Position numbers and translations under genes: made by a program
From: a virus
Taxonomy: Duplodnaviria > Caudoviricetes
Direction: 5' to 3' (one strand)
Virus record (IMG/VR): IMGVR_UViG_3300046167_000270
Coordinates: 1 to 61,974 of that record
Length of the DNA stretch: 61,974 bases
Part shown: in pieces, positions 702-61,619 of the stretch
How the letters are laid out: each line of letters starts with the position of its first letter
Position numbering within the stretch: position 1 is the first letter of the stretch
The notes under the pieces: generated by a model
Seen by the model: the letters and a program-made list of their open reading frames with translations, nothing else
What the model was told of the DNA's origin: nothing
Database searches by the model: none

Positions 702-769
702 ATAACTAAAGTCTTAGTTCGATAGTAATACTTAGAGACTATAAATATAACGACATATGACTCAGCACA

Positions 770-5344: not shown

Positions 5345-5419
5345 CCACGAAATATATAAAGCGACCAGTGATCTTTTGATCGGCTCGTACCGTAAATGGT
5401 ACGGGCTTTTCGTGGTATG
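5345..5419 (+). ncRNA. Structured 5' leader RNA element, copy 2
   Basis: P1 CCACGAAA/TTTCGTGG, P2 GATC-TTTT-GATC, P3 GGCTCGTACC/GGTACGGGCT, then ATG. Confidence 0.7.
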
Positions 5420-5632
5420 AATAATATAAATATGATGAAAGCGTTTATGTTGCTAGGAGATCTATCAACTAAACAAGGTGAAGAACTGTCAGACATGGCA
5501 GTGAAATACCAAGAAAGAATAGCTTTTGCTACAATGAGAGCTAGCATACCTGATTGGCAACCACCAAGTAACTGGGATGAGTTAAGTAATGCAGAAAAAC
5601 ATAAAAGACTTAAAAAGTTACAATCAGTATAA
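5417..5632 (+). CDS. Hypothetical protein (start placed at the ATG after the RNA element)
   Basis: In frame with ORF 5396..5632. Confidence 0.75.
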   Translation: MNNINMMKAFMLLGDLSTKQGEELSDMAVKYQERIAFATMRASIPDWQPPSNWDELSNAEKHKRLKKLQSV

Positions 5633-5634
5633 TA

Positions 5635-5664
5635 CAAACTAAATACGATAACTAATGGATAATA
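5635..5664 (+). promoter_or_regulatory. Class I phage promoter
   Basis: CAAACTAAATACGA-taactaatg-GATAATA. Confidence 0.8.
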
Positions 5665-5669
5665 TTAAT

Positions 5670-5987
5670 ATGAAAGAAGATGCAATTGAAAAATTAGCTC
5701 AACTGTTATTTGATAAAATAATGGAAAAGCAAGAAGAAGCAGACTTAGAGTATGCTGATCAAATTACAAAACTAGTTAATCAAGGCTACACTATATCTGA
5801 TATTACAAGTAATAAAACAGATGAACTAGGCTTAAATGCTGAAGAAAGACTTGTAGGTGAATTAGCTAGGCTGCAAACTATTATGATGATCTTTGAAGAC
5901 AAAGAAGAATATGAAAAAGCAGCAATGATACAAAAGAAAATAGAAAAAATAAATATTAAATTAAATCATGGAAGTGGAAAATATTAA
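5670..5987 (+). CDS. Protein with C-terminal UVR (UvrB/UvrC-type) coiled-coil motif
   Basis: EDKEEYEKAAMIQKKI. Confidence 0.7.
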   Translation: MKEDAIEKLAQLLFDKIMEKQEEADLEYADQITKLVNQGYTISDITSNKTDELGLNAEERLVGELARLQTIMMIFEDKEEYEKAAMIQKKIEKINIKLNHGSGKY

Positions 5988-6822
5988 AGCAATGCTTGCT
6001 CACAAATACAATGAGGACAAAGCAGATTACCCCGCGTTCATACAACCAAAACTAGATGGCGTACGCTGTCTATTTACTGCCAAAGGCGCGTTCTCTCGTG
6101 CTAATAATCAGTTTATGAATGTAGATCACATAACTAAAGATTTAAAGCCTGTATTCGACAGATACCCTACTTTAATTCTTGATGGCGAACTATATAATCA
6201 CGGTCTAAAAGATGACTTTGAAAAGATTATATCTCTTGTAAAGAAGAAAAAACCAACAGATGCTGACAAAGCAGAAGCTGCAGAACTAGTACAATATCAT
6301 ATATATGATGTAGCTAGTTTTCCTCATGCTACTTATACTTGGCGTATGAATTTTATAAATACTCTTAATCATTCAGCTATGTTTAGAACTAGCAATTGCT
6401 TGTGTATAAGTGATACTCAAGTTGTATTAGACTTTGATGAAGCTCTTAAAATGCATAAGAAAAACCTTAAACTAGGTTATGAAGGCAGTATATACAGATC
6501 TATGGAAGGTAAATACAAAGGTACTAGATCATGGGATCTTATGAAGTTCAAAGACTTTCACGATGCAGAAGCTACAATAATTGACTTTGTTGCAGGTAAA
6601 GGTAAAAGAACAGGTACACTAGGTAAATTTATAATGCAAGATCACGAAGGTGTTGTATTCGGTTGTCCTCCAGGTAAAGGTTACAACTATGATGACCTTG
6701 CTGAAATGCTAGAAAATGCTGCACAATATATAGGTCAATGGGCTACATTTACATACTTCGAGCGTACAAAAGCTGGAAGCTACAGACATCCACATTACAA
6801 ATGCTTACGTAATTATGAATGA
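5968..6822 (+). CDS. lig: ATP-dependent DNA ligase
   Basis: KLDGVR, LDGELY, EGSIYR, LMKFK motifs; OB-fold C-terminus. Confidence 0.95.
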   Translation: MEVENIKAMLAHKYNEDKADYPAFIQPKLDGVRCLFTAKGAFSRANNQFMNVDHITKDLKPVFDRYPTLILDGELYNHGLKDDFEKIISLVKKKKPTDADKAEAAELVQYHIYDVASFPHATYTWRMNFINTLNHSAMFRTSNCLCISDTQVVLDFDEALKMHKKNLKLGYEGSIYRSMEGKYKGTRSWDLMKFKDFHDAEATIIDFVAGKGKRTGTLGKFIMQDHEGVVFGCPPGKGYNYDDLAEMLENAAQYIGQWATFTYFERTKAGSYRHPHYKCLRNYE

Positions 6823-6879: not shown

Positions 6880-7035
6880 ATGAGTGATCCAATAAGCTAT
6901 ATGCCTTGGCTGAAGAAAAATGAATGGCAAAGCGATTTATACTACTGCGAAATGTGCAGTGAATTTATGACAGAAGAACATCACAATTTTTGTGATATAT
7001 GCGACAAATGCAGAGACGAATACCCTGAATTATGA
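6880..7035 (+). CDS. Small Cys-rich (Zn-finger) protein, 51 aa
   Basis: Read manually: CEMC...CDICDKC. Confidence 0.6.
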   Translation: MSDPISYMPWLKKNEWQSDLYYCEMCSEFMTEEHHNFCDICDKCRDEYPEL

Positions 7036-7118
7036 GAAAATTAATATGGCAATTATATAATGACAATATGATCAGCGAAGAAGTTGCTCACATGTTATTA
7101 GACAAACACTACGAATAA
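7032..7118 (+). CDS. 28-aa peptide ending inside RNA element copy 3
   Basis: MRKLIWQLYNDNMISEEVAHMLLDKHYE; ATGA overlap. Confidence 0.5.
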   Translation: MRKLIWQLYNDNMISEEVAHMLLDKHYE

Positions 7119-7180
7119 TGCCTTACAATTTAAAATAAGGTTAGCTCACACTGGAAACGGTGTGGGCTTTCGTAGGTATG
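7109..7180 (+). ncRNA. Structured 5' leader RNA element, copy 3
   Basis: P1 CTACGAA/TTCGTAG, P2 GCCTTA/TAAGGT, P3 AGCTCACACTG-GAAA-CGGTGTGGGCT, then ATG. Confidence 0.7.
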
Positions 7181-7351
7181 ATAGAGAAATTTATGAAAAA
7201 AAGACGATGTTTATCTCATAAAAGATATGTATCGCATAGAATGCAAGAATTGCAAAATGAAATATTCCAAGAAGCAATGGATACTGGTCTTGTAAACTTA
7301 GAAAAAAGAAAACAATTATTAAAATATAAAAACCATTTAAAATTTTTATGA
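7178..7351 (+). CDS. Hypothetical basic protein
   Basis: In frame with ORF 7160..7351. Confidence 0.65.
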   Translation: MIEKFMKKRRCLSHKRYVSHRMQELQNEIFQEAMDTGLVNLEKRKQLLKYKNHLKFL

Positions 7352-7458
7352 AAAATTCAGACTGGATATTAAGAAAAAGCCAAGAATGGCTTGATGAAGA
7401 AATAAACTCAAGAGGTTTAAAAAATGAACATGAGTTATACCTAGCTACATTGCATGGG

Positions 7459-7502
7459 GTGACACATGGTACTAAAGATATAGAGTAAGGGGCAAATGTC
7501 AC
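7459..7502. promoter_or_regulatory. GTGACA-N32-TGTCAC inverted-repeat site overlapping the HTH gene start
   Basis: Same geometry recurs at 61545-61588. Confidence 0.65.
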
Positions 7503-8116
7503 ACCGAGATTTAAGATATTTAAATAATAATAGAATTATATATCGTAGATATTCTTCAGATATACCTACATCTAGCCATAGCTGGGGTTGGTATTATGCT
7601 GATGGTACTTATGGGTACTATGCTCTATTTAATAATAAAGCTAAAATTAATACTATTAGATCGCTTAAATGGCATTTGTTAACTCTTTGGTATTTAAATC
7701 CGGTCTTAGATAAAAATAAATTTAAAGAACTTGCTGAGTATATAATTTATAAACAAAATGGATTTGTTACTTTCAGCATAGGAAATAAACTTATTAAACA
7801 AGTTGTTGAAGATGTATTTAAACAAGATCTTGATGTACCACCTAAAAATAGATTACGTAAACTAGTATTTAAAGACTCTAGTGGATTATCTACAACTGAA
7901 AAATTACAAATTGTAGGAAAAATAATAGGTCAAGCTAAAGGTATTAAACAAGATGATGTTTATGAAGCTATGCTATACATACATGAACAAGGTAAAATAA
8001 CAATACCTAAGATAGCTAAAGCATTGAAATGTACCGAGCGCACTATCTACAGACACATGAGTGAAGAACTCAAAGAAGAAAAAAAACTTTTAAATAAACA
8101 ATATGAAAAAGTATAA
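7496..8116 (+). CDS. DNA-binding protein with C-terminal HTH (Rep/initiator-like)
   Basis: ITIPKIAKALKCTERTIYRHM helix-turn-helix. Confidence 0.8.
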   Translation: MSHRDLRYLNNNRIIYRRYSSDIPTSSHSWGWYYADGTYGYYALFNNKAKINTIRSLKWHLLTLWYLNPVLDKNKFKELAEYIIYKQNGFVTFSIGNKLIKQVVEDVFKQDLDVPPKNRLRKLVFKDSSGLSTTEKLQIVGKIIGQAKGIKQDDVYEAMLYIHEQGKITIPKIAKALKCTERTIYRHMSEELKEEKKLLNKQYEKV

Positions 8117-8858
8117 TATAAAAAACTACATCAGGTATATAGATGATAGAAAAAGATCTATACAAAAACGTAAAAAAGAAAAGATTTGTAGACTACACTC
8201 CAGCAGAACTTAAAGTTATATTTTTACCTTTAGTAGAAAATATATCTAGAAAATTTGCAACTTCACAAGAAGCTTCAGGTGTTATGTCTATTATGGATAT
8301 AATGCAAGAAGGTAAGCTTACAGCTATGTAAAGCAGTAGATAAAATAGATAGAACAAGACTAGTGCAATCTGAAGACGTAGAACAAACTTTAAAATCTTT
8401 TTAGCTAAAAGAATAAGAGGCGGCATACGCAGAGCTATTGACACTAACAGAGGTACAATGCGTATACCAGAACATAAATTAAATGAAATGAGGAAAGATG
8501 GTGGTAAAGATAAAAAATGGTTGCTATGTTTTTTAATAGCATATTTTTAAGTATAGATGCTAATCCATCTGATGAAAATATGGTTTATCAAATACCTGAT
8601 AAATCAGATCCTTACAATGAAACACTGCTTAATGCTTATATAATGAGTTTATTAACTAAACACTTAACTTCTGATGAAGTTTTTGTTTTAAGTAAAAGCT
8701 ATGGCCTTGATGGTAAAAAATGGTCTGCTAATGATATAGCAGCAGGCTTTAGAAATAAAGGTGTATCTGCATATGTAAGAGTATCAGAGTTAAAAAAGCA
8801 AGCAGTAAACAAGTTAATAGATAATGTAGATCACTCGCAAGTGATTGATTATCTGTAA
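8103..8858 (+). CDS. sigma70-family RNA polymerase sigma factor (split by several indels)
   Basis: Across frames: DIMQEG..LCKAVDKID..KRIRGGIRRAI..TMRIPEH (region 2), FLSID, region-4-like VLSKSYGLDG..ANDIA..VRVSELKKQAVNKL. Confidence 0.85.
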
Positions 8859-8870
8859 ATTAACAAATAA

Positions 8871-8889
8871 ATATGTAATTATATATATA
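8871..8889 (+). promoter_or_regulatory. Class II promoter candidate ATATGTAATTATATATATA
   Basis: Identical 19-mer on the - strand at 54252-54270. Confidence 0.55.
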
Positions 8890-9440
8890 TGACAATAAAC
8901 CAAAAATTAACCAAAATTCAAACGAAGTTTAAATCGAAAGAAGAGTAGATTTAACTCATTCGGCAAGTATTATTTCCGATCTGCTGAAGACATCCTAGAA
9001 GCTACAAAACCCTTTTTAAAGGAGTTAGACGTATCAGTTGTAATCAAAGAAGAATTAATTTCTTTGATCCACCTGTTATGCAAGTTACCGCTAGATTATC
9101 TAATGGTAAAGAAGAAACAGGTACAGGTAATACTAAATCTGTTTCAGCTGTAGCTATTGTAGGTGTCGACTTAGATCAGAAAGGCATGCAAATGCCACAA
9201 CGATACGGTGCAGCTAGTTCTTACGGTAAGAAATATGCACTAGGTAATTTGTTTTTAATCGATGATACACAAGACGCTGATGCAACTAATAATCACGGTA
9301 AAAAAGCAGTACAACAAGCTATGAGCTCAGCTCAATTAAAATCTGCTAAAGACTACGTAAAGTCTGGAGGAAAAGTTGACGCAATAAAAGCAAAATATAC
9401 ATTAACAAAAGCTCAAGAGAAAGAATTAGCAACGTTATGA
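8889..9440 (+). CDS. ERF-family ssDNA-annealing protein (frameshifted)
   Basis: KYYFRSAEDILEA and GAASSYGKKYAL..DDTQDAD. Confidence 0.85.
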
Positions 9441-10171
9441 AAAACAAAAAAGAAGTATTAGAGAAGCTGAAGGATGATGAACATTACTATGGCGAATATG
9501 GTAGAAACTTTATATCTAACTCAGATATAAGAACACTAATGACAAATCCGCTTGAGTTCAAAAAGCCAACTCCATCAGCTCCTCACTTTCTTATAGGAGG
9601 CTATTTTCACACTGCTATTCTTGAACCAGATAAGATCAAGAATTTTAAAATAGTAGAAGCTAGCTCACGTAATACAAAAGCATACAAAGAAATAACAGAC
9701 GGAGAAGTTTGTTTGTTACAACATGAGGTTGACAAGATCGAAGCGTTAGTTGAAAAGATGATGAACAATAAAGTTTGTCGTGATCTTATACACGCTGAAG
9801 GTAATGAGTTTGAAGTTCCAGGTGTTGCTGAATTAGCAGGCAACTGGTGGAAAGGTAAAGCTGATATTGTTAACCACAGTGAAAAATTAGTTATTGATTT
9901 AAAGACTACTGCAGACTTAGAAAAGTTTCATTGGTCAGCTAAGAAATATAACTATGATTCACAAGCTTTTGTATATAAGAACTTATTTGGCTATGATATG
10001 TTATTCATGGCTATAGATAAGAATACAGGTCAGATCGGTGTATATGATTGCTCAGATAACTTTTATCAAACAGGTTTTGATAAGGTTGAAAAAGCATCTG
10101 AAATATATGATCTGTTCTTTAACAACAAGGATTTCGATCCTAATAATTACTTTATAAATAAAACCCTATAA
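9437..10171 (+). CDS. PD-(D/E)XK exonuclease, RecE/exonuclease VIII-like
   Basis: ISNS, GGYFHTAILEP, KGKAD, IDLKTT, YDSQAFVY. Confidence 0.85.
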   Translation: MKNKKEVLEKLKDDEHYYGEYGRNFISNSDIRTLMTNPLEFKKPTPSAPHFLIGGYFHTAILEPDKIKNFKIVEASSRNTKAYKEITDGEVCLLQHEVDKIEALVEKMMNNKVCRDLIHAEGNEFEVPGVAELAGNWWKGKADIVNHSEKLVIDLKTTADLEKFHWSAKKYNYDSQAFVYKNLFGYDMLFMAIDKNTGQIGVYDCSDNFYQTGFDKVEKASEIYDLFFNNKDFDPNNYFINKTL

Positions 10172-10172
10172 T

Positions 10173-10496
10173 ATGGCAGGAATAGTAAAAGCAAGTATCA
10201 ATTTAAATGCAATTGATAAAAGTCAAAATAATCGAAGGCAAGAAAGGTAAATACCTACCTATTACGATTACAGTTAATGACGAGCCAGATCAGTTTGGTA
10301 ATCAAGGTCCTGTTTGTATAGAGCAGACTAAAGAAGAAAGAGAAGCTAAAGCTGCTAAGACTTATTTAGGTAATGTTAAAGTCTATGGACTAATGGAACA
10401 TTCCCTGAAAAAGTACCTTACGAAGGTGGAGGACTGCTCCACAGACCACAAAATAAACCACAAGCAGTAGCTGCTGATCCAGATCTACCATTTTAA
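10173..10496 (+). CDS. Single-stranded DNA-binding protein (frameshifted)
   Basis: MAGIVKASINL..GKKGKYL..; acidic C-terminal tail ADPDLPF. Confidence 0.7.
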
Positions 10497-10509
10497 TTAA
10501 ATCAAATAA

Positions 10510-12221
10510 ATGCAAGTCGAAGATAAAGAAATAAATGGTTTCTTAATTGAAACTTTTAATCAGCACGGCTTAGAAGTAGGTAAAACGCAGGGGATTTGTC
10601 CCCTGTGTTCATCTTCTAGGAAACCTGAAAATAAGAAAGCTAAATGCTCTTCTTATGATTGGGAACGTGGTATCGGTACTTGCCATAACTGTGACAAATC
10701 TTTCCAATTACATACGTTTAAACGTAAAGGCAAAGCTGAGCGTGAGTATGTAATGCCTGAAGTAAAACATAAGCCAGTTGAATCTAAAGTTATTGATTGG
10801 TTTAAAACAAGAGGGAATATCTAAACAAACCTTAGATGAGGTTGGTGTAGGTGAAGGTAAAGAGTTTATGCCACAGACCGGTAAACCCGAGAATACTATT
10901 CAGTTTAATTATTATGTAGGTGGAAACCTAACTAATGTTAAATATAGAGATGGTCGTAAAAACTTTAAGCTATATAAAGGAGCTGAAAAAGTATTTTACA
11001 ATATAGACAGTATTGTTGGTCATGATACTTGTGTTATAGTTGAAGGCGAAATGGATGTACTTGCTATACACGAAGCTGGCTACACTCCAGTTGTATCAGT
11101 ACCAAACGGTGCTACGTTAAATACAAACAACCTAGATTATCTAGATAATTGTATTGATTACTTTGAAGATAAGAAAAAGATAATCATTGCAGTTGATGAT
11201 GATCCACCTGGTGTTGCATTGCAACAAGAGCTTATACGTAGGCTTGGTGCTGAGGTTTGTTTTATAACTACGTTTGATGATTGTAAAGATGCTAATGAAT
11301 ACTTAACTAAGCACGGCTCTAAGGAGCTAATGTCACGTATTGAAATAGCACATCCTGTACCTCTTGAAAACGTTACAACATTTAGAGACATCGAAGACGA
11401 AGTTACAGACTTTGTTCGTAATGGTTTTAAACGTGGTTTTCAAATAGGTTTACATAACTTTGATAATATCTTTTCTACTTATACTAAACAGTTTATAACT
11501 GTAACAGGTGTACCTAGTTCAGGTAAATCAGATTTTGTAGATCAAATGTGCGTAGGTTATAATAGAGAGTATGGTTGGAAAACAGCGTTTGCATCTCCTG
11601 AAAACGCGCCTACATATTTACATGCACATAAGTTAATGCGTAAAGTATGGGGTGATATGCCTAATAAAGGCGATATTGGCGGTGATAAATGGAATCAAGT
11701 TGCAAGTCATGTTAATGATAACTTTTTCTTTATTGATATGGAACGTTATACATTAGAGTCAGTATTACGTAAAGGAGCTGAGCTAGTTAAGCGTAAAGGT
11801 ATTAAATGCCTTGTTATTGATCCATATAATAAAGTTAGAGACACTGATTGTCAAACAGAGGATGTTAACCGCTATACAATGGAATACTTAACTAAGATCG
11901 AAACTTTTGCAAAGAAAGTATGATGTATTAGTATTTATTGTTGCACATCCAACTAAGATGTATAAAGGCCAAGATGGTAAAATCGAAGAGCCAACGATGT
12001 ATAATATAAAAGGTGGTGGTGAATGGTATGATGCTAGTTACCACGGCTTATTAGTTCATAGAGACTACGAAAATAAAACAACAAAAGTTAAGGTATTGAA
12101 ATGTAAGTTTCAAAACTTAGGCGAGAACGGAGCTGAAGCCCATTTTACTTGGGAACCAAAGTCTGGTTGCTTTGTTCCACATGAGATGCCTGACTTAGAT
12201 GAAAAAATGCCTTGGGACTAA
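10510..12221 (+). CDS. T7 gp4/Twinkle-like primase-helicase (three frame segments)
   Basis: Zn ribbon CPLC..CHNC; TOPRIM VEGEMD/DDD; Walker A GVPSSGKS; VIDP; VAHP. Confidence 0.92.
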
Positions 12222-12475
12222 AGAAATTTACGTTTGACGAAGTTAAATGGACTAAAGAAGACAAACAAGCTTACAGGTGGTGTGTTAATCACGGAATTAA
12301 AATAGGTGTATTAGCTGCTACACCAGGCTTTGATGTTGGATCTTGGAAAATACGTATCGTTGCAAACAATAAAGAAATGATTAGCCCAGGAGATTATAGT
12401 AGAACAGAAATATATCCTAAAGTATTTGAAATGTATAGACATTATTACAAACTAAATACGAAGGGTAAACGATAA
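12212..12475 (+). CDS. Hypothetical protein
   Basis: ORF track. Confidence 0.75.
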   Translation: MGLKKFTFDEVKWTKEDKQAYRWCVNHGIKIGVLAATPGFDVGSWKIRIVANNKEMISPGDYSRTEIYPKVFEMYRHYYKLNTKGKR

Positions 12476-12477
12476 TA
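12448..12477 (+). promoter_or_regulatory. Class I phage promoter
   Basis: CAAACTAAATACGA-agggtaaac-GATAATA. Confidence 0.8.
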
Positions 12478-17237: not shown

Positions 17238-20200
17238 TTATTTTGGACGACCTTTACCTATAAACTCAAGTGGTTCTTTTTTCTTTGGCTTTGGTTTAGC
17301 CGAATCTTTTCTACCGTCTGGATTTATTTGCCACTCTGGCCAACCAGCTAACATAGCAACAGACTGCCACCATTCAGTCTCTTCGTCCATAGCTGCTTCT
17401 ATATTTTGCATTTTTAACAATACTCTATCTAGCGGGACGTTAGTAACTGCAGAGACAACTTTAGTCGTAGCTTCATAACCTGGATTATCTAATCCAAAAT
17501 CTTCCATAGCTTTTTTCCTACGTTTCTTACTGTCTAAATTCCACGCAGCTTGTCTAAGTTTAGATATTTTAGAACTTATAGGTGGAGAAAACTGTAGTAA
17601 TTTATATATAGAATCAACATATTCAGGTCTGCTTCTTCCAGATCTTTCGTAAATATCTAACAAAAAGTTTTTAGCTACAGCTACTGCAGCACCTCCCATG
17701 CCTAATCCTCTTAATATAGAGTCGGCCATACCATTAGCTACACCTATAGCTTTTTTAACTTCTTGCTCATCATCATCTTCACTGTTAGCAGCTAAAGCAA
17801 ATACCGCTTGTTGAAGCATGTTAAACATTAAGTTTTGAACAACTCCATAATATATTATTTTACTAACGTTTGCTTTGTTATCGCCTCTTCCTGCTGCTAG
17901 ATCTTGAAAAGCTCTTTTCTGCATACGAGCATACTGCATAGGTGTGTTGGCATAAGCTAGTATCAAACGACCAGCATCACTAGATTGTTGCTGAGATATT
18001 CTCATTGGATCAGAAGACTGTTGAGACTCTTCAGCTTTTTCTCTAAACTCTAACATAGCTTGAGCATCTGCTTCTTTCTGTGTCATTTCAGGATTGTTCT
18101 TCATTAGGTCAGCTGATCTATTACGAAAATAAGTAGCACCACCTAAAGCTATAGCAAAGCTATCAGCAAATTGTGTAGGTGCATATCCTTTAGAAAGTAT
18201 ATATGATATAGCTGCTTGAGCTTTATTGCCACTAGTGTTTGCAGCGTTAGCTATTTCATTTTCAGATATATTAATTCTCATACCGTTTCTACGATCAACT
18301 AGAAAATCAGAGTTCATTAACATCATGAAGTCAGACCAATATTGTTTTTGATTAGCAAAAGCTTTACCAGCTTTAATAGGATTATTAAAACTCCAGTTTA
18401 TAAAGTTAGCACTAGATAAAGTTTGAAGCACTGCAGATCTTATGTTTAAGAACATAACAACACCATTAGCATTATTAATATAATCAAGTATTCTGTTGCT
18501 TAATCTATTTCCACTAGCTAACCTGTTTTTACCTTGCTTCATTCTTTCAAGAACATTTTTTAAAGCTTCTACATATTTTGTACCATAAGCAGCTTCTAAT
18601 TTATTTAAATTTTCTTGTGAAAATATTACATCAACATTTCTTTGCCACTCTTCTAAATACTTTCTTCTAACACCTTTATTTACTCCATCTATAAGATCAG
18701 TAGTTATTGTACCAGCTAACCAACTTTCACTTGGAGCGTTATACTCAAATGTTTTGTTTAGTTTCATTATCTCGTCAGCAAATGTCTTAAGATTTTGATT
18801 AGCCTCTATTATATCTAATAGCTCTTTAGTATCTCCTTTAGATAAACCTGGTACAGTCATACCTTGCTTATTCCATATATATACTCTTACAGCTTGCTCG
18901 TTACTAAAGCCAGACTTGTTAGTTTTCTTTAAATCTTTAGGAACATCTAAATCTTCTTTAAGCTTTTTAAAATCTTCAAACATGTTTTTTCTAAAAGTAG
19001 ATAAATTATTTGATGCTCTAGTGTAAGGATCCATTAACCTTTCTTTAAACCACTTCATGGCTGAATTACCTTTAGCACCTTTAGGAAGTATAGGATATAT
19101 AAGACCTAAGAAGTCTTCAGCAGAATAAGGTATAAAGAATTTAAACCTACCTTTCTTAGCTCCAACGATTTTACCTTTAGCCTCTGAATATCTAGACTCA
19201 CTTCTAATACCTGTAGCTTCTTCAACTATTCTATTAAAGTCCTCGTTTATATCAGCTTCTAAACTCATTTTAGCTTGTTGTACTTTAGACTTAACATCTA
19301 ATACAGACATTGCATCTCTCACCGCTTTAACATTTTGCAAAGCATCGTCAGCAAAATAAAAATCATTATAACCTTCTGCTGCTTTATTAACTAGCCAGTT
19401 AGCTTTAGCAGCGCCAGTAGAGTTACCTAATCCTGTTATATTTTTTAAAGGTAAGTTTAATCCTACACTATCTAAAAACTCTTTAATAGCAACTTGAGCT
19501 TCAGGAGCTCTAGCTGTTAATACAAACACGTCCTCTGTACCTCTTGCTGCTTGTATCTTTTTAGCTATATCTAATAATGGACCTGGTTTTCCTTTAGTTA
19601 CTTTATTAAACTCACTAAAATCAAACTTATAACCTTGATCTAATAATGTTTTACCTTGAGTAGCAAACTCTTCTGCATTTAACTTACCTTTAGTACCGTC
19701 AGGTGCTGTAAATAAAACGTCTGACTCTGTAGTAGCTAATGTATCATCAAAATCAAATACTCTAATTTTTCTGACAGGAGCTTTAATATCTCTACCTACA
19801 TTTAAAGCATCATCTACTGTAGCTGCATAACCTATTATATCTTCATTAGTTTCCATAGAAGCTTTAACAACGTTGTTATCTAGCGCAGTTACATTAGCTT
19901 GTTTAGCTTGCTGTATACTATTCCATAATTTAGCAGGACCTACAGACTCTTTAACTATTTTACCTGTTTGTATATTAAACAACTCTGTAACTTCACCACC
20001 AATAGTAAACTCATTAAACCATCTAGTGAGTGGAGTATCACCATATTGATAAGTTAATGGCATAGATGCTTTAAAAAAGTTACCAAAGTTGTCATCAAAA
20101 CCTTTTGATATAACACCCACTTGATAACTGTCTTTTAATTTGCTTAAGCTAATCTCTTTGTTTTTGCCAAATACAGCATCAGCTATCATTAAGTTCATCA

Positions 20201-23200
20201 CAGATGAAGGTATGCCATGCTCATACTCAAATAACTTACCTACGTTATTATTATTGTAACCTTTAGTATCTATGTTTGTTGGCACATAAGTTAATCTACC
20301 AGCAGCTCTCATAGGCCCTTTCATGTTATCATTAAAGCCTTTCATTAACATAGCTGCATTTTCTTTAGTTGCAGTTTTGTCTTTTAACATTTTATCTACA
20401 GTCTTGTAGTAAGTTGTAATAAAATTCCAAGCTCTATCAGAATAATCATTTCTACCATCTACTTCTTTCTGAGACATGTTATTTGTAACCATGTCCATAG
20501 TAGTTTTCTGTGCATATCTTTTAGGTGATAGAACTTCCCTAGTAGTTCCATCTTTCATTTTAAACTCTAAAGTAGTTACTCCAGACTTATTTGTTTTGAA
20601 TTTATAATCTACAATATCAAAATTGTTTTCAATAAGCTCTTTATTAAAAACTTCAACATGTCCACCATTGCCAGACTCATTGCCATAAGTCATATTTCTT
20701 TTTAATCCACCGTCTTCAAAACCTCCTTTAAACAATATAAAATCAGCAGCTAAATCTAGTTTGCTTTTACCTTGCTTAGCATAAGCATTTACTAATTTAG
20801 GTATAGATACGTTTATAAAAGCTTTTTGCCTTTGTCTACCTTCAGGAGTAAATAAATTACCAACACTAATGCTGTTTCCATCTGCATCTTTTAAATTCCA
20901 GAACTTATTTAAAGTAGTACTTTCATCAGCATTTAAACTTCCATCTATATAAGACTTTAAAGGAAAATCAGTTATGCCTTCGTATTCTACTACTTGTTTT
21001 CCAAACTTGTTTATTAATGGAGTGTATAAGTCTACTAACTTAGTTATTTCAGGTCTACTTAGATTATCACTATATATACCTTCTATAATACTTCTAACTT
21101 GTTTTTTAGTTTCTTTAATATCTTTAGCAAATCCAACGTTGTAACCGGTATCAAGCAATAGTTTAATCAACTTGTCTTTGTCTTCCATATATATTCCAAA
21201 GTTGTTAGCTGTTGGATTTTTCATTTCAGAAAACTGTCTCTCTACTTCTTTAGATAACTTAGACTGAACACCTCTATCTATAGCAGAAGCCATTACTTGC
21301 ACAACATCATCAGCTACTAGATAATTTAACTCAGGGTTTCTATTAGTAATTTTATCTATAGTATCTTGCTCTGTCATTACCTGCATAGTACCATCAAAAC
21401 CGTATGTCTTAGCTAAGTTTTTAATTAATGCTTCGTCTCTACCTCTTTTCTTAAAGAAGTCTAAAAAAGCTTGATCACTAGGCATTAATCTTGAGTAAAG
21501 ATTAGGTCCTGACTTTGGATTAGAATATACTAATCTACCTGTGCCTTCATATCTTTTTATATCTTCTGGACTTAAATTTTTACGATCTAATGAAGTAAAT
21601 ATTTTATCTTTAGATAATCTTTCCATGGCTACTAAATCAGCTATAGAAAGTTTATTTACTATAGCGTTTCTAAGATCTAATAATCTTTGATCATAACCAG
21701 GTTTTCCTTTACCTAGTGATTCTTTTATATTATCATAAAGTATAGACTCATACTGAGCAGCTATATTATTTCTAAAATCTTTTATTATTCTTGTATAATC
21801 TAATTCAGCTTGTTGAAACTCTTTTCTACTTATTGAGTCTTTGTTTTTTAATATAGCTCTAACGTCTTTTAAACTAACTAAAACATCTGCTTGGCCTTTC
21901 TTTTTTCTAACATACTCTAGCTTTGGCAATTTAGTACCTAATACTAGCTCGTTAGCTCTAAGTATAGCATTGTACATATCAGAGCCTGGTAAAACGCCTG
22001 ATTCTCTAGTAAAGTTTAATTCTTCTGGTATGTTAACTTCCTCTGCCGCTACTGGATCAAACTGTCTTCTACCTTCTACTTGAGCATCTATGTCTACTGT
22101 ATTTTTTGGAGCAGCACCTTTAGCCATTTGTTTTCTAGCATCACCAACTTTAAATGGCGCATAGTTACCCATGTAAGCAGCTATAGGATTTTTAGCAGTT
22201 AATTGAGTTTCAGGATTCATTGCTAGCAAGTGATTTAAAAAAGGACCTGTTATAGTAGTCATTGCTAATTCTGGATCGAAGCCTGATAATTGCATCACCT
22301 GATCTATCCAGTCTCTACTAATATCTTCAAACAACTGTGCGCCTTCAGGAGTTAAAGTACCTCCATCTCTTAACTTAACACCATCGACTAACATGTATTT
22401 TTCGTAGTCGTCTCTAGTCATTGTTCTAAATGTCTTATCAAATATATCTCTATATTTTATATTTCTATCTTCTTGTTCTTTAGAGGTTTTTGGCTTTTGT
22501 TTTTTTGGACCTTTACTTACTATACTATTAATAGTAGACAATACTGTTGGCGCTAAAGCTTCTGAAGATCTAGCATCTGCAATGTCTTGCTCTGTTAAAG
22601 TACCAGTACCTATTTTCTTAGCTAAGCCAACTAAAAACGAAACAGCGTCAGTTTCTCCTTTAAAATTAACTTCAAAACCTTTTTCTTTTGTAGTATTATT
22701 AGACATAAAACCAAATAAACTAGCTAGCTTTTTATTTTTCTTTTGGTTAAAATCTATATTACCTTGATCTACCTGTTCTAAAAATTCTATTACAAACTCT
22801 TCTGCTTGAATTTTAGTAGTTGCACCGACACTCATTTTTTGTCTTATAACATTTAGCATATCAATATCTTCTTTTCCTAGATAATCTGATATAGCTTGTG
22901 CTAATTGACTAAAATCTCCATCTCCAGTTTGCAATATTTCCTTAAATACAGCATGGCCAGGTTCATGTATGCCTATAGAAGTTCTATCATTTTTAACAGA
23001 GTTTTCTAATATAACAAATTGCTGGCCGTTTATATTATCTAAACCGTTTAGTGTTCCATCTTTTATAGCTTGTATTTGAGCAGCTTTATCTTGTTCTGAT
23101 AGGTTTTCAGCGTTTTTAACTAGATCAATTGCCTCAGCGTTTGTTTTAGCAATTCGTATATCAACACCATAACTATTCTGAGCAGAAGCTACTTTATCTA

Positions 23201-26126
23201 GTATAACTTGTTCTGTGTAAATATCATAAGCAACATCTTGAACTTCTTTAATTTCTGGAGTAAAATCTGGATTTTCATTTTTCTTTATCCTTATCTTCTC
23301 TTTAGCATCAGCCATTATAGAATTATATCTATCAGGATCTGTTTGCTCTAGTAATTTAAAAGTATTTTTAAAAGCTTTATTGTTTCTAAAAAGATCTCTT
23401 GCATATTGTGTAGCATCAAACTTTTCTTTTAAGTCATTTAATAATTCTTGTTTCTTATCTTTGCTAAGTCCTGGATCATTATAAATGTCTTGTGCTTGCT
23501 TTTTTAAAGCCTCTTGTTCTTGAGTAGCTCTATTAAATCTTTTCCACCCATCTTTACCCATGTTATTTTCCATCTCACTAACCATACCTTTCAATATGTC
23601 TTGAGACTTTGCTTCTAAATCTGCTTTCTTTTTTCTAAGTATTTCTTTAGAAGATTCACTTATTAAATCGTTTTTAAGAAGCTTGTTTATACTAGAAACA
23701 TCTTTTATAACATTATTATACTCATCATATTTTTTAGGATCACTAAACTTTTGTAAAGCCATACCATACATTACTGGAGATACTGACATACCAAAACCGA
23801 ACATACCACCAGAAAACATAGCGTGATCAACATTGTCTAGCAAGCCTACGCCGTCTAACATGTTTTGAGTCATCTGAGTTAATCCTTCACCTACAGCTTC
23901 TGATAAAGGATCTTGTATTAAAATTCTTTTACCTTGCTCTTTCCAAGTTTGTTTTATTGCTTGATTAAAGTTTAACAAGCTTTCACCACCCGCAGCACTT
24001 AAATAGCTTTTACCACGCTTAAGTATTTGAACTGTAGTCAATGCTTCAAACACTGCTTCTGCAGCACCATAACCTGCCGATACACCAAACTTAACAAGTT
24101 CATTTCTTTCAAAACCAGATCTTAAATCTTCTTGATCCATTTCCATATACTTCTCTCCAGCAGCATAAGCACCTATTATATATGGTGATGCGGTACCACC
24201 TGAAGCTATTATAGTAGCAAGTATAGGTAATTGTTGCCCCATTTCTTGAGTCATAAACCTACCAAAAGCAGCTGGTCCACTTGTAAAAGCACGATCAAAA
24301 CTTACGTCTTTAGCATACTGATCTCTGCTCATGTTCTTCCAGTCAGTAAATCTAGTAGCTGTTTCATCTAATAAACCACCAATTGATTTAGATACAATAT
24401 TTTCTTCTTCTAAAGTTTTATCACCTGATATTTCTTCAGCTAAATAAGTTCCACCTTGAATAACTTTACCTACTCCATAAGCTAAACCAGCCCCTATAGA
24501 TGCAAATCCTGAACCTACATTATATTGAAACTTACTCCAACTATTATAATCTCTACGTAGTAAATCAAACTGTGCGTCTATGTTTTTTAAGTTGTCTGTT
24601 TCAGCATCAATTCTAGATTGTCTATCTTGCAGTCTAGCATACTTATCTCTTAAATTCTTAGATGATGTAAGGTATTTATCAAAAGCTTCTTTAGAAACAG
24701 TTTTACCATTTCTAAGTTTTATAGCTTCTTGACCTTCTTCAATTATAAATTGCTTACTATTATCTAAATATATTTTTTCAAAGTCTTCTACTATAACTCT
24801 ATCACCTTCTGAAGCTGACGAATTATAATCTGCTAATTCTACTTCTTGAAGCTTTTGTAGTCCAGCGGCTTTTTTAAATGATCGATCTTCTTCAACAGCC
24901 TTATAAGCTTTAAGAATACCTTGCATTTCATCATCATTAGCTTCTAAGTAATCAGTCCACTTATCATCTTGAAGTTTGTTGTATTTTTTATTGTATATTA
25001 TTTTTCTAGCAGCATCTTTTATTTCAGCTTCAGTAGCAGCTGGCAGTTGATCGTCTATAGATCTTTTTTTATTTTCTACTGCTCTAGCGTCATTGAGCAT
25101 TTTCTCAGCGGCATTTAATTCTTTTTCGTATGGATTTACAACAACTTGTTTAGTTTGCTGAACCATAAAATCACCCATAGCTGTTGGACCTCCTCCATAT
25201 ATTGCTACGTCTTCAGTGTAAGGTTCAAATAAATCTATACGTTCAGATTCTTTTTCTATTTCAGCAGCCTCAGCATCTGTAACGTTTACAATGCTATTTA
25301 TTCTTTTGGTTTCCTCTGATATTTTTTTATCTGTTTCATCATATAGTTTTGCATCATAACCGTTAGTATCTACAAATTTTATAATATCACTCTTCATCTT
25401 AGTAACAGATCCAGATCCAATATCGCCATCTACACCGTCTTTTACATCACTTATAAATGTAGTTTCTCCGTTAGGAGCTGTCATTGTTATACCTACGTTT
25501 GTTCCTCCTCCAATGTCAAAACCAAAAAATTTATTTTCATCTGCTATTTCAAAACCATAATCAGGGTACATAGTTTTCAAAGCATCTACTGTAGCACCAT
25601 AATCTCCTCCATTCATTTTCTCATATTGAGAAAAAGTCTCTGTAGTACTTTCATTGTCTAACCAGTCGTGTATACCTCTACCGCTAGATGTTTCAGGATT
25701 TTTACTATTAGCTAATAGCTGTCTATCATTTCTTTTTTGCTCTGCTAAAGCTAGATCTTTTAATCTTTGCTCGTTAAGTTGTTTTGTTTTAGTATCAACT
25801 ACATTTTCATCTACAACATAACTACTATACAGTTCTTTATCAGATTCAGTTACATCTAAATTACTTATTTGCTCATCATAACTTAAATTAATGTTTTTAA
25901 TTTCTGTATCATAATCTGACAAAACGTTTTCCGCAGTTAAGTCTGTGTCCATAGATTCTAAAACAGCTTCGTCTTCTTGCGCTAGATTAATTGCGGTTTC
26001 CTCTGCGGTCTCTTGCTCTTCCACTTGTTCTCCTAAAGTAGCAGTGGGAAATTTTTCAAGAAACTCTTCTTCTCTATTAGGAGCCACATTGTATCTTACT
26101 CCGTCTACAATATAAATTTTATTCAT
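17238..26126 (-). CDS. Giant internal virion/ejection (polyvalent) protein with zincin-like and HAD domains
   Basis: 2962 aa; HEPGH..EEF; DFDDT/TAR/ADD HAD motifs; last gene of the structural module. Confidence 0.85.
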   Translation of the reverse strand: MNKIYIVDGVRYNVAPNREEEFLEKFPTATLGEQVEEQETAEETAINLAQEDEAVLESMDTDLTAENVLSDYDTEIKNINLSYDEQISNLDVTESDKELYSSYVVDENVVDTKTKQLNEQRLKDLALAEQKRNDRQLLANSKNPETSSGRGIHDWLDNESTTETFSQYEKMNGGDYGATVDALKTMYPDYGFEIADENKFFGFDIGGGTNVGITMTAPNGETTFISDVKDGVDGDIGSGSVTKMKSDIIKFVDTNGYDAKLYDETDKKISEETKRINSIVNVTDAEAAEIEKESERIDLFEPYTEDVAIYGGGPTAMGDFMVQQTKQVVVNPYEKELNAAEKMLNDARAVENKKRSIDDQLPAATEAEIKDAARKIIYNKKYNKLQDDKWTDYLEANDDEMQGILKAYKAVEEDRSFKKAAGLQKLQEVELADYNSSASEGDRVIVEDFEKIYLDNSKQFIIEEGQEAIKLRNGKTVSKEAFDKYLTSSKNLRDKYARLQDRQSRIDAETDNLKNIDAQFDLLRRDYNSWSKFQYNVGSGFASIGAGLAYGVGKVIQGGTYLAEEISGDKTLEEENIVSKSIGGLLDETATRFTDWKNMSRDQYAKDVSFDRAFTSGPAAFGRFMTQEMGQQLPILATIIASGGTASPYIIGAYAAGEKYMEMDQEDLRSGFERNELVKFGVSAGYGAAEAVFEALTTVQILKRGKSYLSAAGGESLLNFNQAIKQTWKEQGKRILIQDPLSEAVGEGLTQMTQNMLDGVGLLDNVDHAMFSGGMFGFGMSVSPVMYGMALQKFSDPKKYDEYNNVIKDVSSINKLLKNDLISESSKEILRKKKADLEAKSQDILKGMVSEMENNMGKDGWKRFNRATQEQEALKKQAQDIYNDPGLSKDKKQELLNDLKEKFDATQYARDLFRNNKAFKNTFKLLEQTDPDRYNSIMADAKEKIRIKKNENPDFTPEIKEVQDVAYDIYTEQVILDKVASAQNSYGVDIRIAKTNAEAIDLVKNAENLSEQDKAAQIQAIKDGTLNGLDNINGQQFVILENSVKNDRTSIGIHEPGHAVFKEILQTGDGDFSQLAQAISDYLGKEDIDMLNVIRQKMSVGATTKIQAEEFVIEFLEQVDQGNIDFNQKKNKKLASLFGFMSNNTTKEKGFEVNFKGETDAVSFLVGLAKKIGTGTLTEQDIADARSSEALAPTVLSTINSIVSKGPKKQKPKTSKEQEDRNIKYRDIFDKTFRTMTRDDYEKYMLVDGVKLRDGGTLTPEGAQLFEDISRDWIDQVMQLSGFDPELAMTTITGPFLNHLLAMNPETQLTAKNPIAAYMGNYAPFKVGDARKQMAKGAAPKNTVDIDAQVEGRRQFDPVAAEEVNIPEELNFTRESGVLPGSDMYNAILRANELVLGTKLPKLEYVRKKKGQADVLVSLKDVRAILKNKDSISRKEFQQAELDYTRIIKDFRNNIAAQYESILYDNIKESLGKGKPGYDQRLLDLRNAIVNKLSIADLVAMERLSKDKIFTSLDRKNLSPEDIKRYEGTGRLVYSNPKSGPNLYSRLMPSDQAFLDFFKKRGRDEALIKNLAKTYGFDGTMQVMTEQDTIDKITNRNPELNYLVADDVVQVMASAIDRGVQSKLSKEVERQFSEMKNPTANNFGIYMEDKDKLIKLLLDTGYNVGFAKDIKETKKQVRSIIEGIYSDNLSRPEITKLVDLYTPLINKFGKQVVEYEGITDFPLKSYIDGSLNADESTTLNKFWNLKDADGNSISVGNLFTPEGRQRQKAFINVSIPKLVNAYAKQGKSKLDLAADFILFKGGFEDGGLKRNMTYGNESGNGGHVEVFNKELIENNFDIVDYKFKTNKSGVTTLEFKMKDGTTREVLSPKRYAQKTTMDMVTNNMSQKEVDGRNDYSDRAWNFITTYYKTVDKMLKDKTATKENAAMLMKGFNDNMKGPMRAAGRLTYVPTNIDTKGYNNNNVGKLFEYEHGIPSSVMNLMIADAVFGKNKEISLSKLKDSYQVGVISKGFDDNFGNFFKASMPLTYQYGDTPLTRWFNEFTIGGEVTELFNIQTGKIVKESVGPAKLWNSIQQAKQANVTALDNNVVKASMETNEDIIGYAATVDDALNVGRDIKAPVRKIRVFDFDDTLATTESDVLFTAPDGTKGKLNAEEFATQGKTLLDQGYKFDFSEFNKVTKGKPGPLLDIAKKIQAARGTEDVFVLTARAPEAQVAIKEFLDSVGLNLPLKNITGLGNSTGAAKANWLVNKAAEGYNDFYFADDALQNVKAVRDAMSVLDVKSKVQQAKMSLEADINEDFNRIVEEATGIRSESRYSEAKGKIVGAKKGRFKFFIPYSAEDFLGLIYPILPKGAKGNSAMKWFKERLMDPYTRASNNLSTFRKNMFEDFKKLKEDLDVPKDLKKTNKSGFSNEQAVRVYIWNKQGMTVPGLSKGDTKELLDIIEANQNLKTFADEIMKLNKTFEYNAPSESWLAGTITTDLIDGVNKGVRRKYLEEWQRNVDVIFSQENLNKLEAAYGTKYVEALKNVLERMKQGKNRLASGNRLSNRILDYINNANGVVMFLNIRSAVLQTLSSANFINWSFNNPIKAGKAFANQKQYWSDFMMLMNSDFLVDRRNGMRINISENEIANAANTSGNKAQAAISYILSKGYAPTQFADSFAIALGGATYFRNRSADLMKNNPEMTQKEADAQAMLEFREKAEESQQSSDPMRISQQQSSDAGRLILAYANTPMQYARMQKRAFQDLAAGRGDNKANVSKIIYYGVVQNLMFNMLQQAVFALAANSEDDDEQEVKKAIGVANGMADSILRGLGMGGAAVAVAKNFLLDIYERSGRSRPEYVDSIYKLLQFSPPISSKISKLRQAAWNLDSKKRRKKAMEDFGLDNPGYEATTKVVSAVTNVPLDRVLLKMQNIEAAMDEETEWWQSVAMLAGWPEWQINPDGRKDSAKPKPKKKEPLEFIGKGRPK

Positions 26127-46595: not shown

Positions 46596-46867
46596 TTACT
46601 TCTCCCTTCCGCGAAACCTTTAAAAGCTTTTTGTTCTTTAACTTCTTTAGGTTTATTGTTTAGCATGTCTTCTTCTTCTTGTATTCTAGTTAATATTTCA
46701 AAAGCATCCATTATAGCTAGCTTTTTAGTAGCGGCAGCATTTTTAAGTCTGTCAGCACTTACATCATCGTCTGAGTCTACGATCTTTTCTTTTGCCACCT
46801 TAATTAACTCCTCAATTGCCTTTTGCCCAGCTTGGATTATTTTCTTTTTCGTTTCCTTGGTATTCAT
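46592..46867 (-). CDS. Putative terminase small subunit
   Basis: Small helical protein coupled to TerL. Confidence 0.55.
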   Translation of the reverse strand: MNTKETKKKIIQAGQKAIEELIKVAKEKIVDSDDDVSADRLKNAAATKKLAIMDAFEILTRIQEEEDMLNNKPKEVKEQKAFKGFAEGRSK

Positions 46868-47405
46868 GCGTTAAAGCTATATCATTTAATTTCATACAAT
46901 AAAGTCGTTCACCTTCTATAATAAACTCAAATTCAGAGTTTGGTGTAAACGTTACAAGTGTCCCAGGTGTTATTCCTATGGCTTCTAAGGCGCTATTAGT
47001 ATATTTCATTATACCAACATTAGGTTGTTCTTTCCTGTTTTCTAAAATGCTTTTATTTTTAATTGGCTTAACAAAGCAATAATCTAAATGAGTATTTAGA
47101 TTATACATATATATTTGTTGTGGAGATACAAAGTATAAGTTATCTTTAAAGAAAGTAGAGCTATTACGCTCTCTGCCTTTTTGATCGTACCATCTTCTAA
47201 ATATATTGTGATGAACATATAATTCATCACCTATATTTATTTTAGTAGCATAAGCTGCAGGAGTTGAAACTACTACAGCTTTTTTACTAATAAATCTATG
47301 GTTTTCAATGCTAGTATTGATAATAAGGTTAGTATCATCAACTCTTCGTATATTGTCATACCTGTCATTTAGTGGTTTAACAATGAAGTTATATAAGCTT
47401 TGCAT
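46812..47405 (-). CDS. Tandem GroES-like protein
   Basis: Two segments of F(I)VKP..G/A-VV..G(D/T)-V; C-terminal YCMKLNDI. Confidence 0.6.
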   Translation of the reverse strand: MQSLYNFIVKPLNDRYDNIRRVDDTNLIINTSIENHRFISKKAVVVSTPAAYATKINIGDELYVHHNIFRRWYDQKGRERNSSTFFKDNLYFVSPQQIYMYNLNTHLDYCFVKPIKNKSILENRKEQPNVGIMKYTNSALEAIGITPGTLVTFTPNSEFEFIIEGERLYCMKLNDIALTHEYQGNEKENNPSWAKGN

Positions 47406-55581: not shown

Positions 55582-55838
55582 AGAACAATAACTATATCAT
55601 GCTCTTTAATAACTTTGTATTCTTCTTTTTCTAACTCTATATTAAACCCAGCTGACTTGTCATAATAGACTTCATCACCTTTTTTTATTGCTTGTACATC
55701 AGAGCCAGGTTCTATAACCTTAGCTCTTCTGTATCTTACATCTTCTCTTTGCTTTTCAGCTAGAATTAAACCTCCTTTTGTAGTTGTGTCAACTTCCTTG
55801 ATAGGATCTATAACTATATACTTGCCTATCGCTCTCAT
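55578..55838 (-). CDS. groES: Co-chaperonin GroES
   Basis: TTKGGLIL, KKGDEVYY, IKEHDI. Confidence 0.9.
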   Translation of the reverse strand: MRAIGKYIVIDPIKEVDTTTKGGLILAEKQREDVRYRRAKVIEPGSDVQAIKKGDEVYYDKSAGFNIELEKEEYKVIKEHDIVIVL

Positions 55839-61083: not shown

Positions 61084-61087
61084 GTTG

Positions 61088-61426
61088 TTAGTTTAAAAAT
61101 GCTTTCCCTGAAAAAGGAGCGCTAAATCGTATTGTTATTTGGTTTTTTGAATCGTAAGTTATATCTCCTATGTTAACATTTAGTCCAGAATCAACAACTG
61201 TTGCGCTAGGATATTTGTCTAAGTTGTGTGGTATCACCCAAGTGTCAGATACGGAATCTTGTACCCAAACATAAGTACCTTGAGCTACCACAAAATCTGA
61301 TATAAACCCTACTGTAGTTCGTTTTGTCTTAAAATTTGGATTATTACTTTCTGCATCCGAAATTATGATCTCATCATTTTTGTTTAATGGTTTATCTTTT
61401 AACGGATATGTAGTAATTATCGCCAT
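61088..61426 (-). CDS. Fibre-associated structural protein
   Basis: WVIPHNLDKYP module resembling the C-terminus of 59386..61083. Confidence 0.7.
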   Translation of the reverse strand: MAIITTYPLKDKPLNKNDEIIISDAESNNPNFKTKRTTVGFISDFVVAQGTYVWVQDSVSDTWVIPHNLDKYPSATVVDSGLNVNIGDITYDSKNQITIRFSAPFSGKAFLN

Positions 61427-61544
61427 TTATAGTATTTTTTTAGTATTTTATGCCATTATGGCCTTATTTATAAGAGATTACAGAATATTACTCATTTTTA
61501 CCTGTATTTACATTGTATATTTACAGGCTAATTGTAGACTAAGG

Positions 61545-61588: not shown

Positions 61589-61619
61589 TGTTTTATTAAA
61601 AATATAGGAGTAAAGTACT

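Follow-up and report, generated by a model that had tools for sequence, protein, structure and literature searches.

What is the role of a long inverted repeat that straddles the start codon of a putative phage regulatory gene, and why does a second copy lie ahead of the late genes, close to the right end of the same record? The window in which this question arises is a whole phage record of 61,974 bp. Its plus strand carries the early and replication genes (1-17.4 kb), encoding an ATP-dependent ligase, Erf, an exonuclease, a primase-helicase, a thymidylate synthase, MazG and a ribonucleotide reductase, and its minus-strand arm (17.2-61.4 kb) encodes TerL, the portal, virion proteins, a GroEL-like chaperonin and a 2962-aa protein. 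An earlier note on this DNA had pointed to inverted GTGACA and TGTCAC hexamers 32 bp apart at 7459 and at 61545, and had proposed that the helix-turn-helix (HTH) protein encoded at the first site, here called P0001, binds both. The features at issue are as follows.

718-762, plus strand: decayed remnant of a third, early-region site (E), recognized by alignment and intact at the homologous place in relatives L035 and L043
7348-7488, plus strand: 46-aa upstream ORF, with its last codons in the left half of site S1 and its TAA inside the site
7459-7502, minus strand: site S1, a 44-bp imperfect palindrome (nhmmer 7504-7459, E 9.8e-7)
7496-8116, plus strand: P0001, 206 aa, with an N-domain (residues 1-147) and a predicted three-helix HTH (residues 148-206)
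61088-61426, minus strand: first late-arm gene, 112 aa, with its ATG 118 nt from site T
61545-61588, plus strand: site T, a 44-bp palindrome (61537-61596 with flanks; nhmmer 61540-61594, E 2.7e-9)

Within the window, GTGACA-N32-TGTCAC occurs exactly twice, at 7459-7502 (GTGACACATGGTACTAAAGATATAGAGTAAGGGGCAAATGTCAC) and at 61545-61588 (GTGACAAATGCCCTTTATTAGTAGCTTTAATAGGCTAATGTCAC), as the earlier note had stated. When the spacer is allowed to range from 20 to 45 nt there are still two matches, both with N32, compared with a mean of 0.01 in shuffled sequence; none of 100 shuffles reached two. The GTGACA hexamer on its own shows no enrichment (14 copies over the two strands versus 20.1 expected), and four of the 14 copies lie within the two pairs. 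The extended half-site GTGACAwwwGCCY, of which three examples had been reported, is indeed exact at 7490-7502 (minus), 61545-61557 (plus) and 61576-61588 (minus), and five matches with at most one mismatch are found versus 0.66 expected. The claimed overlap with the start of the 206-aa HTH protein is likewise correct, the ATG of P0001 (7496-7498) lying within the right arm of S1. Site T begins 118 nt from the ATG (61426, minus strand) of the first late-arm gene, in agreement with its description as upstream of the late arm, and its right end is 31 nt short of the terminal redundancy (61620); the distance of about 30 bp given for the latter stands, whereas the direct terminal repeat (DTR) to which it was measured may be an assembly overlap.

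A nhmmer profile built from 48 upstream sites of relatives, with the window excluded, recognizes exactly two full sites in the window, S1 and T. Two marginal half-site matches, at 11320-11341 and 9593-9615 (E 0.05-0.08), both fall inside genes and are treated as chance. No profile match was obtained at the remnant at 718-762, and the window is taken as one without an E site. Between site T and the first late ATG (61426-61545, minus strand) there is a short stem, GCCA-TAA-TGGC, with a counterpart, GCC-TAAAAA-GGC, in relative L012; this may represent a small, conserved hairpin of the late leader.

A scan of IMG/VR with a ten-member alignment confirmed 510 stretches, of which the best 80 (50-87% protein identity) were kept as loci. 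Using the profile made from upstream sites only, the gene-start copy was found on the HTH start codon in 79 of the 80 loci; a dyad-symmetric site overlapping the start of the putative regulator's gene is, in other words, conserved together with that gene. The motif search in relatives, which had been suggested as a check, thus recovers the start-codon site, and the copy at the head of the late arm recurs as well. On direct reading, the start codon carries GGCTAATGTCAC in nearly all 80 loci, with a GYGACR hexamer lying 31-34 nt upstream. Two relatives, L001 and L002, have an upstream gene with no relation to that of the window, and there the alignment is near-identical from the left hexamer onward. 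An upstream frame with 35 or more open codons ends no more than 30 nt before the ATG in 59 of 81 loci, its stop codon most commonly starting 10 nt (26 loci) and next most commonly 13 nt (11 loci) before it. Some relatives translate the hexamer as V-T, others as C-D, S-D or Y-D; because it is read in two frames, it is conserved as DNA or RNA and not as protein.

Of the 46 loci in which 5 kb or more of sequence is available upstream, 42 keep at least one upstream site (22 have one, 19 two, one three and four none), at distances of 4.3-9.9 kb from the gene. Through a degenerate regular expression, 122 curated sites (127 raw matches) were collected from the 80 loci, versus five raw matches on the same sequences read backwards. 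For 30 of 38 upstream-most sites found in this way, a minus-strand ORF of 60 codons or more begins 36-276 nt to the left of the site, marking the head of the late arm. The second upstream sites (E) lie a few bases past the stop codon of a plus-strand early ORF and, where this is readable, 0-90 nt ahead of the early-type promoter motif described below (2 of 13 by a strict regular expression); a third site is present in about two fifths of the relatives. Twelve IMG/VR contigs match the pattern of the clade to which the window belongs, with a spacer of 32 nt in three and 33 nt in nine. All three records examined that CheckV rates as at least 98% complete (G000, G003 and G009) carry both the gene-start and an upstream site, and the other records, in which the HTH gene is missing, are fragments ending before the gene could appear. 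A chance origin of S1 and T is rejected on the strength of these counts: two pairs stand against 0.01 expected, the window-free profile finds both, and the forward matches far outnumber the reversed ones.

The copies within one genome also tend to share their variants. The GCGAC form of the hexamer is present in both site classes in 11 genomes, in neither in 22 and in one class in four (n = 37, uncorrected for ancestry), a concordance of 33/37 across sites within a genome. In a distant subfamily (28 loci, 428 kb, 22-28% identity to P0001), the profile gave zero matches and no start-codon palindrome was seen; a shared palindrome of another kind was likewise not found in these 28 loci, which thus act as a negative control. 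Metagenome runs from 13 studies contain a stretch of the window. Among the contigs of four runs over 61200-61974, depth on 61538-61589 reaches 317 versus approximately 31-40 alongside in run X12, 18-22 versus approximately 4.5 in X5, and 29 versus 15.5 in X7, while X4 has no peak at site T; loose contig ends occur at 61542 and at 61588/61599. The jump in depth arises because contigs of divergent relatives match only there.

Comparison of 49 distinct upstream and 60 distinct gene-start sites gives the half-site consensus GYGACR-wTAGCC-yn-TTACT, approximately 19-25 nt long. Each site is a 44-56-bp asymmetric, imperfect palindrome with an A+T-rich centre: one half fits the consensus well, and the other retains GYGACR-wTAG and TTA but not the rest. 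The outer hexamers and wTAGSC blocks of both halves are conserved. Information content amounts to 0.7-1.6 bits per column over site positions 7-22 versus 0.15-0.58 in the flanks, a comparison from which the outer hexamers were left out because the regular expression fixes them. The earlier note's 32-bp geometry does not hold exactly in relatives. At the gene start (n = 71) the spacer is 31 (7 sites), 32 (37), 33 (21) or 34 bp (6), and upstream (n = 51) it is 31 (1), 32 (10), 33 (21), 34 (18) or 35 bp (1); thus, 32 bp is the modal spacer at the gene start only. Orientation is strict. Relative to the upstream-site profile, 79 of 79 gene-start sites are on the minus strand and 61 of 64 upstream sites on the plus strand, the three exceptions scoring 16-17 bits. 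Because orientation is fixed, the strong half always adjoins the start of the neighbouring gene, namely P0001 at S1 and the late arm at T. The length of the half-sites, the asymmetric element with its fixed orientation and the third, early-region copy in many relatives all go beyond what had been noticed before.

The protein encoded at S1 is a credible partner for such an element. An AlphaFold2 model of P0001, built from 32 diverse members of the family, has a pLDDT of 95 and places helices at residues 152-165, 170-177 and 181-187. Residues 148-206 superpose on TetR-type HTH domains (Z 5.0-6.2, rmsd 1.0-6.4 Å over 39-62 residues), a generic match; on the basis of the model, we are confident that this segment adopts a helix-turn-helix fold. 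In Pfam, HTH_7 (23.4 bits, gathering cut-off 23.8) and HTH_11 (22.8 versus 25) both score below threshold, and some relatives bear precomputed PF02796 or PF08279 labels. Modelled alone, the N-domain (1-147) has a pLDDT of 89.6. Foldseek returned nothing for it at E ≤ 0.001, and the best VIA-align Z score was 5.3, under the tool's noise guide of 7-8; likenesses to the primase helix-bundle and to ColE2 Rep (Z 4.1-4.4) are noise-level leads. A Foldseek search with the whole protein gave nothing significant (sigma-factor and mariner rows had E values of 0.7-3), and the ESM Atlas yielded viral 'hypothetical protein' clusters only. Across the 32 diverse members, N68, F125 and K136 are invariant, and R121, I139, T183 and N200 nearly so; as judged from the alignment, these residues give no hint of an enzyme or of catalysis. 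Taken together with the modelled fold, P0001 is a plausible sequence-specific DNA binder.

Several more familiar identities were considered for P0001 and rejected. A serine recombinase is contradicted by Pfam, which lists only HTH families, and by the alignment, in which no serine is invariant among the 32 members; a single complex in Foldseek had an E value of 3.2. A TetR repressor is contradicted by the C-terminal location of the HTH (148-206) and by the lack of TetR_N and TetR_C matches in Pfam, and a small terminase subunit by the lack of a PHROG match and by a distance of 36 kb from TerL. The family comprises 1708 proteins at E ≤ 0.001 among 1854 candidates, forming 212 clusters at 50% identity. 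A tblastn search of 50,697 deposited phage records returned no P0001, and no close relative was confirmed in species-representative bacterial genomes by a method suited to close relatives.

The genomic setting of P0001 is a replication and recombination block, and the packaging genes lie elsewhere, as revealed by a PHROG/Pfam-type scan of the ORFs.

5968-6822, near P0001: ligase
9078-9440, near P0001: Erf
9437-10171, near P0001: exonuclease
10778-12221, near P0001: primase-helicase (two ORFs)
44373-46595, minus-strand arm: TerL

The primase-helicase is divided between two overlapping ORFs (10778-11923 and 11907-12221), the second of which aligns with the C-terminal end of the PHROG families that the first also matches; a frameshift, a sequencing error or a true split could each account for this. 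In the virion-gene arm, the 2962-aa protein (17241-26126, minus strand) has just a weak polynucleotide kinase-like stretch at residues 2118-2296, and the phage encodes both a GroEL-like chaperonin (55838-57379, minus strand, E 3.5e-129) and a GroES-annotated PHROG member (46815-47405, minus strand, E 3.1e-20). TerL is 45% identical to that of Flavobacterium phage vB_FspP_elemo, which offers a rough placement only; other TerL matches below 60% include Cellulophaga phages, and one uncultured record reaches 64%. Based on this comparison, the hosts of the relatives are Flavobacteriia. No DNA similarity to deposited phages was found for 7000-9000 or for 60900-61974.

Two further sequence motifs punctuate the early region. 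The motif ACAAACTAAATACGA-N9-GATAATA lies on the plus strand a few bases before early-gene ATGs, at 155-185 (= 61774-61804), 400-430, 813-843, 1658-1688, 2709-2739, 3401, 4183, 5634-5664 and 12447-12477. Five exact copies are present versus zero expected, and 18 versus 5.6 expected when up to three mismatches are allowed. It is probably a phage-specific early promoter giving almost leaderless messages, and we take it to be unlike Bacteroidota host-type motifs. In addition, a 29-nt repeat containing GGTATGGGCTTTTCGTGGTATGA leads into the ATG of the next ORF at 2962-2990, 5393-5421 and 7154-7182; it looks like the 3' half of a terminator stem followed by a T run and seems to lie where early operons end. 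Its third copy is 300 nt before S1, which accordingly lies downstream of a terminator-like repeat, and the block 7178-12440 contains no early-type promoter motif.

At the other end of the window, site T adjoins the terminal redundancy.

61603-61630: boundary motif with a small inverted repeat, TATAGGAGTA..TACCCCCACA, spanning the start of the terminal redundancy
61620-61967: right copy of the terminal redundancy, equal to 1-348 with one mismatch (102/61721)

Past a 2-nt insertion, the identity between the two copies runs on to the last base of the record, and the right limit of the redundancy is therefore set by the end of the record. It may be a true DTR or have arisen as an overlap during assembly. 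In runs X4 and X7, contigs extend past the end of the window, as expected under either, and no contig starting at the homologous terminal base was seen among the loci sampled. The boundary motif is conserved in relatives at a variable distance of 17-32 nt from site T. In the window its sequence, AAATATAGGAGTAAAGTACT followed by ATACCCCC, contains the first base of the redundancy, and a regular expression for ATA..GGRR matches within 70 nt downstream of 22 of 38 upstream-most sites versus none of 38 left flanks. The inverted repeat at 61603-61630 was called terminator-like on the minus strand by a terminator scan. A second peak in metagenome contig depth covers the right part of the redundancy (61850-61950 = 231-331; 133-255 versus approximately 40 in X12), a block that is likewise common to divergent relatives. 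The similar words AAATTACAGAGAAT (334-347) and AAATTCTGCAGAGAAT (668-683) were also noted.

We tentatively propose, at slightly less than an even chance, that P0001 binds S1 and T, regulates its own gene and controls the late arm as a transcriptional switch. The proposal is built on sequence comparison, from which we infer P0001 as the binder, the sign of the regulation and transcription as its level. S1 and T would be double-stranded operators of P0001-family HTH proteins, in which two half-sites face each other across an A+T-rich centre with their outer hexamers 31-35 bp apart. Expressed from the replication/recombination block, P0001 would occlude its own gene start when bound to S1, resulting in negative feedback, and on T it would switch the late arm, the simplest version being that it activates, or relieves repression of, a promoter overlapping or adjoining that site. 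In approximately two fifths of the relatives, it would also bind a third site, between the stop codon of an early ORF and the next early-type promoter motif. Some observations sit less comfortably with this scheme. Another protein of these phages could be the binder, and the 31-35-bp range of spacers is not easily accommodated by a single rigid dimer in contact with both outer hexamers. The strong half of the E site points away from the next early promoter, and its terminator-like position fits better with a roadblock or some other role. Finally, the location of T beside the redundancy-edge motif is matched equally well by a role at the genome end.

Among the rival explanations, a function at the RNA or single-strand level is the least probable, and we regard it as very remote. 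Here, the element would be a terminator, a processing site or a stem sequestering the start codon, the last coupling translation of P0001 to that of the upstream ORF. The AUG in the right arm and the upstream stop codon in the loop region would suit such a stem, as would the AAAAGT...ACTTTT that flanks many upstream sites, after a stop codon. The pairing itself argues the other way: over 23 pairs in 48 distinct upstream sites, 69.2% of cells are paired versus 69.9 ± 0.8 when shuffled (412 of 500 shuffles do as well or better), and the covariation score is 0.090 versus 0.098 in shuffles. The halves pair because each is conserved on its own, not through selection for pairing. Indeed, hexamer positions 2 and 6 show uncompensated T-to-C and A-to-G changes on either arm, leaving C-A mismatches on either strand, and the sequence, beyond mere pairing, is kept at 50% protein divergence. 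Single-strand folds of S1 and T are weak (-2.8 to -7.8 kcal/mol, z -0.2 to -2.6), the terminator scan flagged neither site, and a search of Rfam with the sites gave no match; a hairpin, a terminator or a known RNA is rejected on these grounds. Pairing without covariation, together with a hexamer read in two frames, favours a protein-bound double-stranded DNA site. Such a site could also be a phage-specific middle or late promoter that fires towards its strong half, from S1 into P0001 and the replication block and from T and E into the late arm; a modified or phage-directed RNA polymerase would read the element, and the dyad symmetry would be secondary. Fixed orientation to the adjacent gene speaks for this reading, as do the 36-43 nt between T and the first late ATG in several relatives, too little for a separate promoter, and the lack of an early-type motif of its own in 7178-12440. 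A sigma-70 scan flags only GTGACA-N16-TAGAGT in S1, which has 9 of 12 positions in common with the sigma-70 consensus; T is left unflagged, and inspection by eye recognized no host-type (Bacteroidota) promoter beside T or S1. The main sigma factor of Flavobacteriia, the hosts of the relatives, is known to use motifs other than the sigma-70 consensus. Moreover, a one-way promoter has no need of both hexamers and both wTAGSC blocks, and a leftward-firing E site would be antisense to the early genes. We consider the promoter reading quite unlikely as a separate explanation; it overlaps with the proposed P0001 switch if P0001 is an activator.

The other two rivals assign the sites to DNA replication or to the genome ends. 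P0001 might be an origin-binding initiator that recruits the phage primase-helicase, with S1, T and, where present, E as origins. The location of its gene amid ligase, Erf, exonuclease and primase-helicase genes is consistent with this, as are the A+T-rich centres of all the sites and the A/T run of 17-32 nt that follows T. Among the 46 ORFs scanned, no DNA or RNA polymerase and no rival candidate for the initiator was recognized, and some protein must therefore mark an origin. Lambda O and SPP1 G38P are initiators that bind sites in their own genes. Two or three origins would nonetheless be unusual for a 62-kb genome, the sites are single palindromes and not iteron arrays, and the resemblance of the N-domain to primase helix-bundle and Rep DNA-binding domains is at noise level. 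The strict orientation to the adjacent gene start would have no obvious meaning at an origin and fits less well, and an origin role is on the whole unlikely. A role at the genome ends, with T setting where the left edge of the terminal repeat is cut or nicked, or priming duplication of the repeat, while S1 is autoregulatory only, is more doubtful still. It would explain why T lies so near the start of the redundancy in the window and why, in the relatives, it is always 17-32 nt from the ATATAGGGGTA..GTG.TACCCCC motif that contains the boundary. The concatemer junction of T7 provides a proposed precedent for duplication of the repeat, and no small terminase subunit was recognized beside TerL. 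Set against these points, the redundancy continues up to the final base of the record and may be an assembly overlap, the spacing between T and the motif varies, and no sampled contig starts at the homologous base. Furthermore, S1 and the E sites are far from any end, and P0001 is encoded in the early/replication arm, away from the packaging genes.

A more ambitious version of the P0001 switch is conceivable, in which the protein, with a new N-terminal fold, acts as a master timer for a very abundant lineage of uncultured podophages of marine flavobacteria. Through one class of long, oriented palindromes it would shut itself off, fire the 44-kb late arm and mark the place of genome-end formation, thereby coupling late transcription to end formation or packaging. 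The marking of genome ends is suggested because the late-arm site is always 17-32 bp from the redundancy-edge motif. We regard this version as speculative and rather improbable.

Known phage systems offer partial parallels to the proposed regulator and its sites. In phi29, the small DNA-binding protein p4 recognizes inverted-repeat sites between divergent early and late genes, turning late transcription on and early promoters down. The present system would be alike in pairing a small, putatively DNA-binding phage protein with inverted-repeat sites at an early/late control region; however, p4 is not an HTH protein and its short inverted repeats are clustered in one region, whereas the sites in the window are 44-56 bp long and kilobases apart, with one over the start codon of the regulator. 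Mor and C of phage Mu are small phage proteins with a C-terminal HTH whose dyad site is upstream of, or overlaps, middle or late promoters. P0001 resembles them in size, in its C-terminal HTH and in the dyad symmetry of its putative site, but has no sequence or fold match to them; its 147-aa N-domain is without counterpart, its half-sites are far longer, and there are two to three sites per genome.

Replication initiators invite a similar comparison. Lambda O and SPP1 G38P are replication-module proteins with sites at or in their own genes, and G38P has a second, distant site beside A+T-rich DNA. Their sites are iteron arrays bound by an N-terminal domain, in contrast to the single long palindrome and C-terminal HTH seen here, and Pfam and PHROG searches detected no homology of P0001 to either protein. 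With TetR and resolvase (HTH_7) domains, P0001 shares the three-helix fold noted above, the HTH_7 score being below cut-off and the superposition on TetR within the range that the tool calls a common arrangement; unlike those proteins, it has neither a TetR ligand domain nor a resolvase catalytic domain, and its HTH is C-terminal. The T7 concatemer junction likewise has, at the right genome end, an inverted repeat in the unique DNA to the left of the terminal repeat, but the element described here is also found over an internal gene start and within the early region, and shows no selection for pairing.

In kind, then, the proposed arrangement is familiar, being that of a phage HTH regulator with palindromic operators, one of them at its own gene. 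What is new is an unannotated family with an unmatched N-domain; a very long, oriented element that tolerates spacers of 31-35 bp; and the placement of that element at genome class boundaries near the redundancy edge, kept through a large uncultured marine lineage. The abstracts returned by a full-text literature search contained nothing on the element. For a lineage without a genetic system, the analysis offers a testable regulator-operator pair with a defined motif and an orientation rule, in which two to three sites per genome stand at the boundaries between expression classes. The P0001 family is unannotated yet common in marine metagenomes. Should binding be confirmed, the middle/late switch, and perhaps also the genome ends, could be annotated from these sites in hundreds of genomes of uncultured phages.
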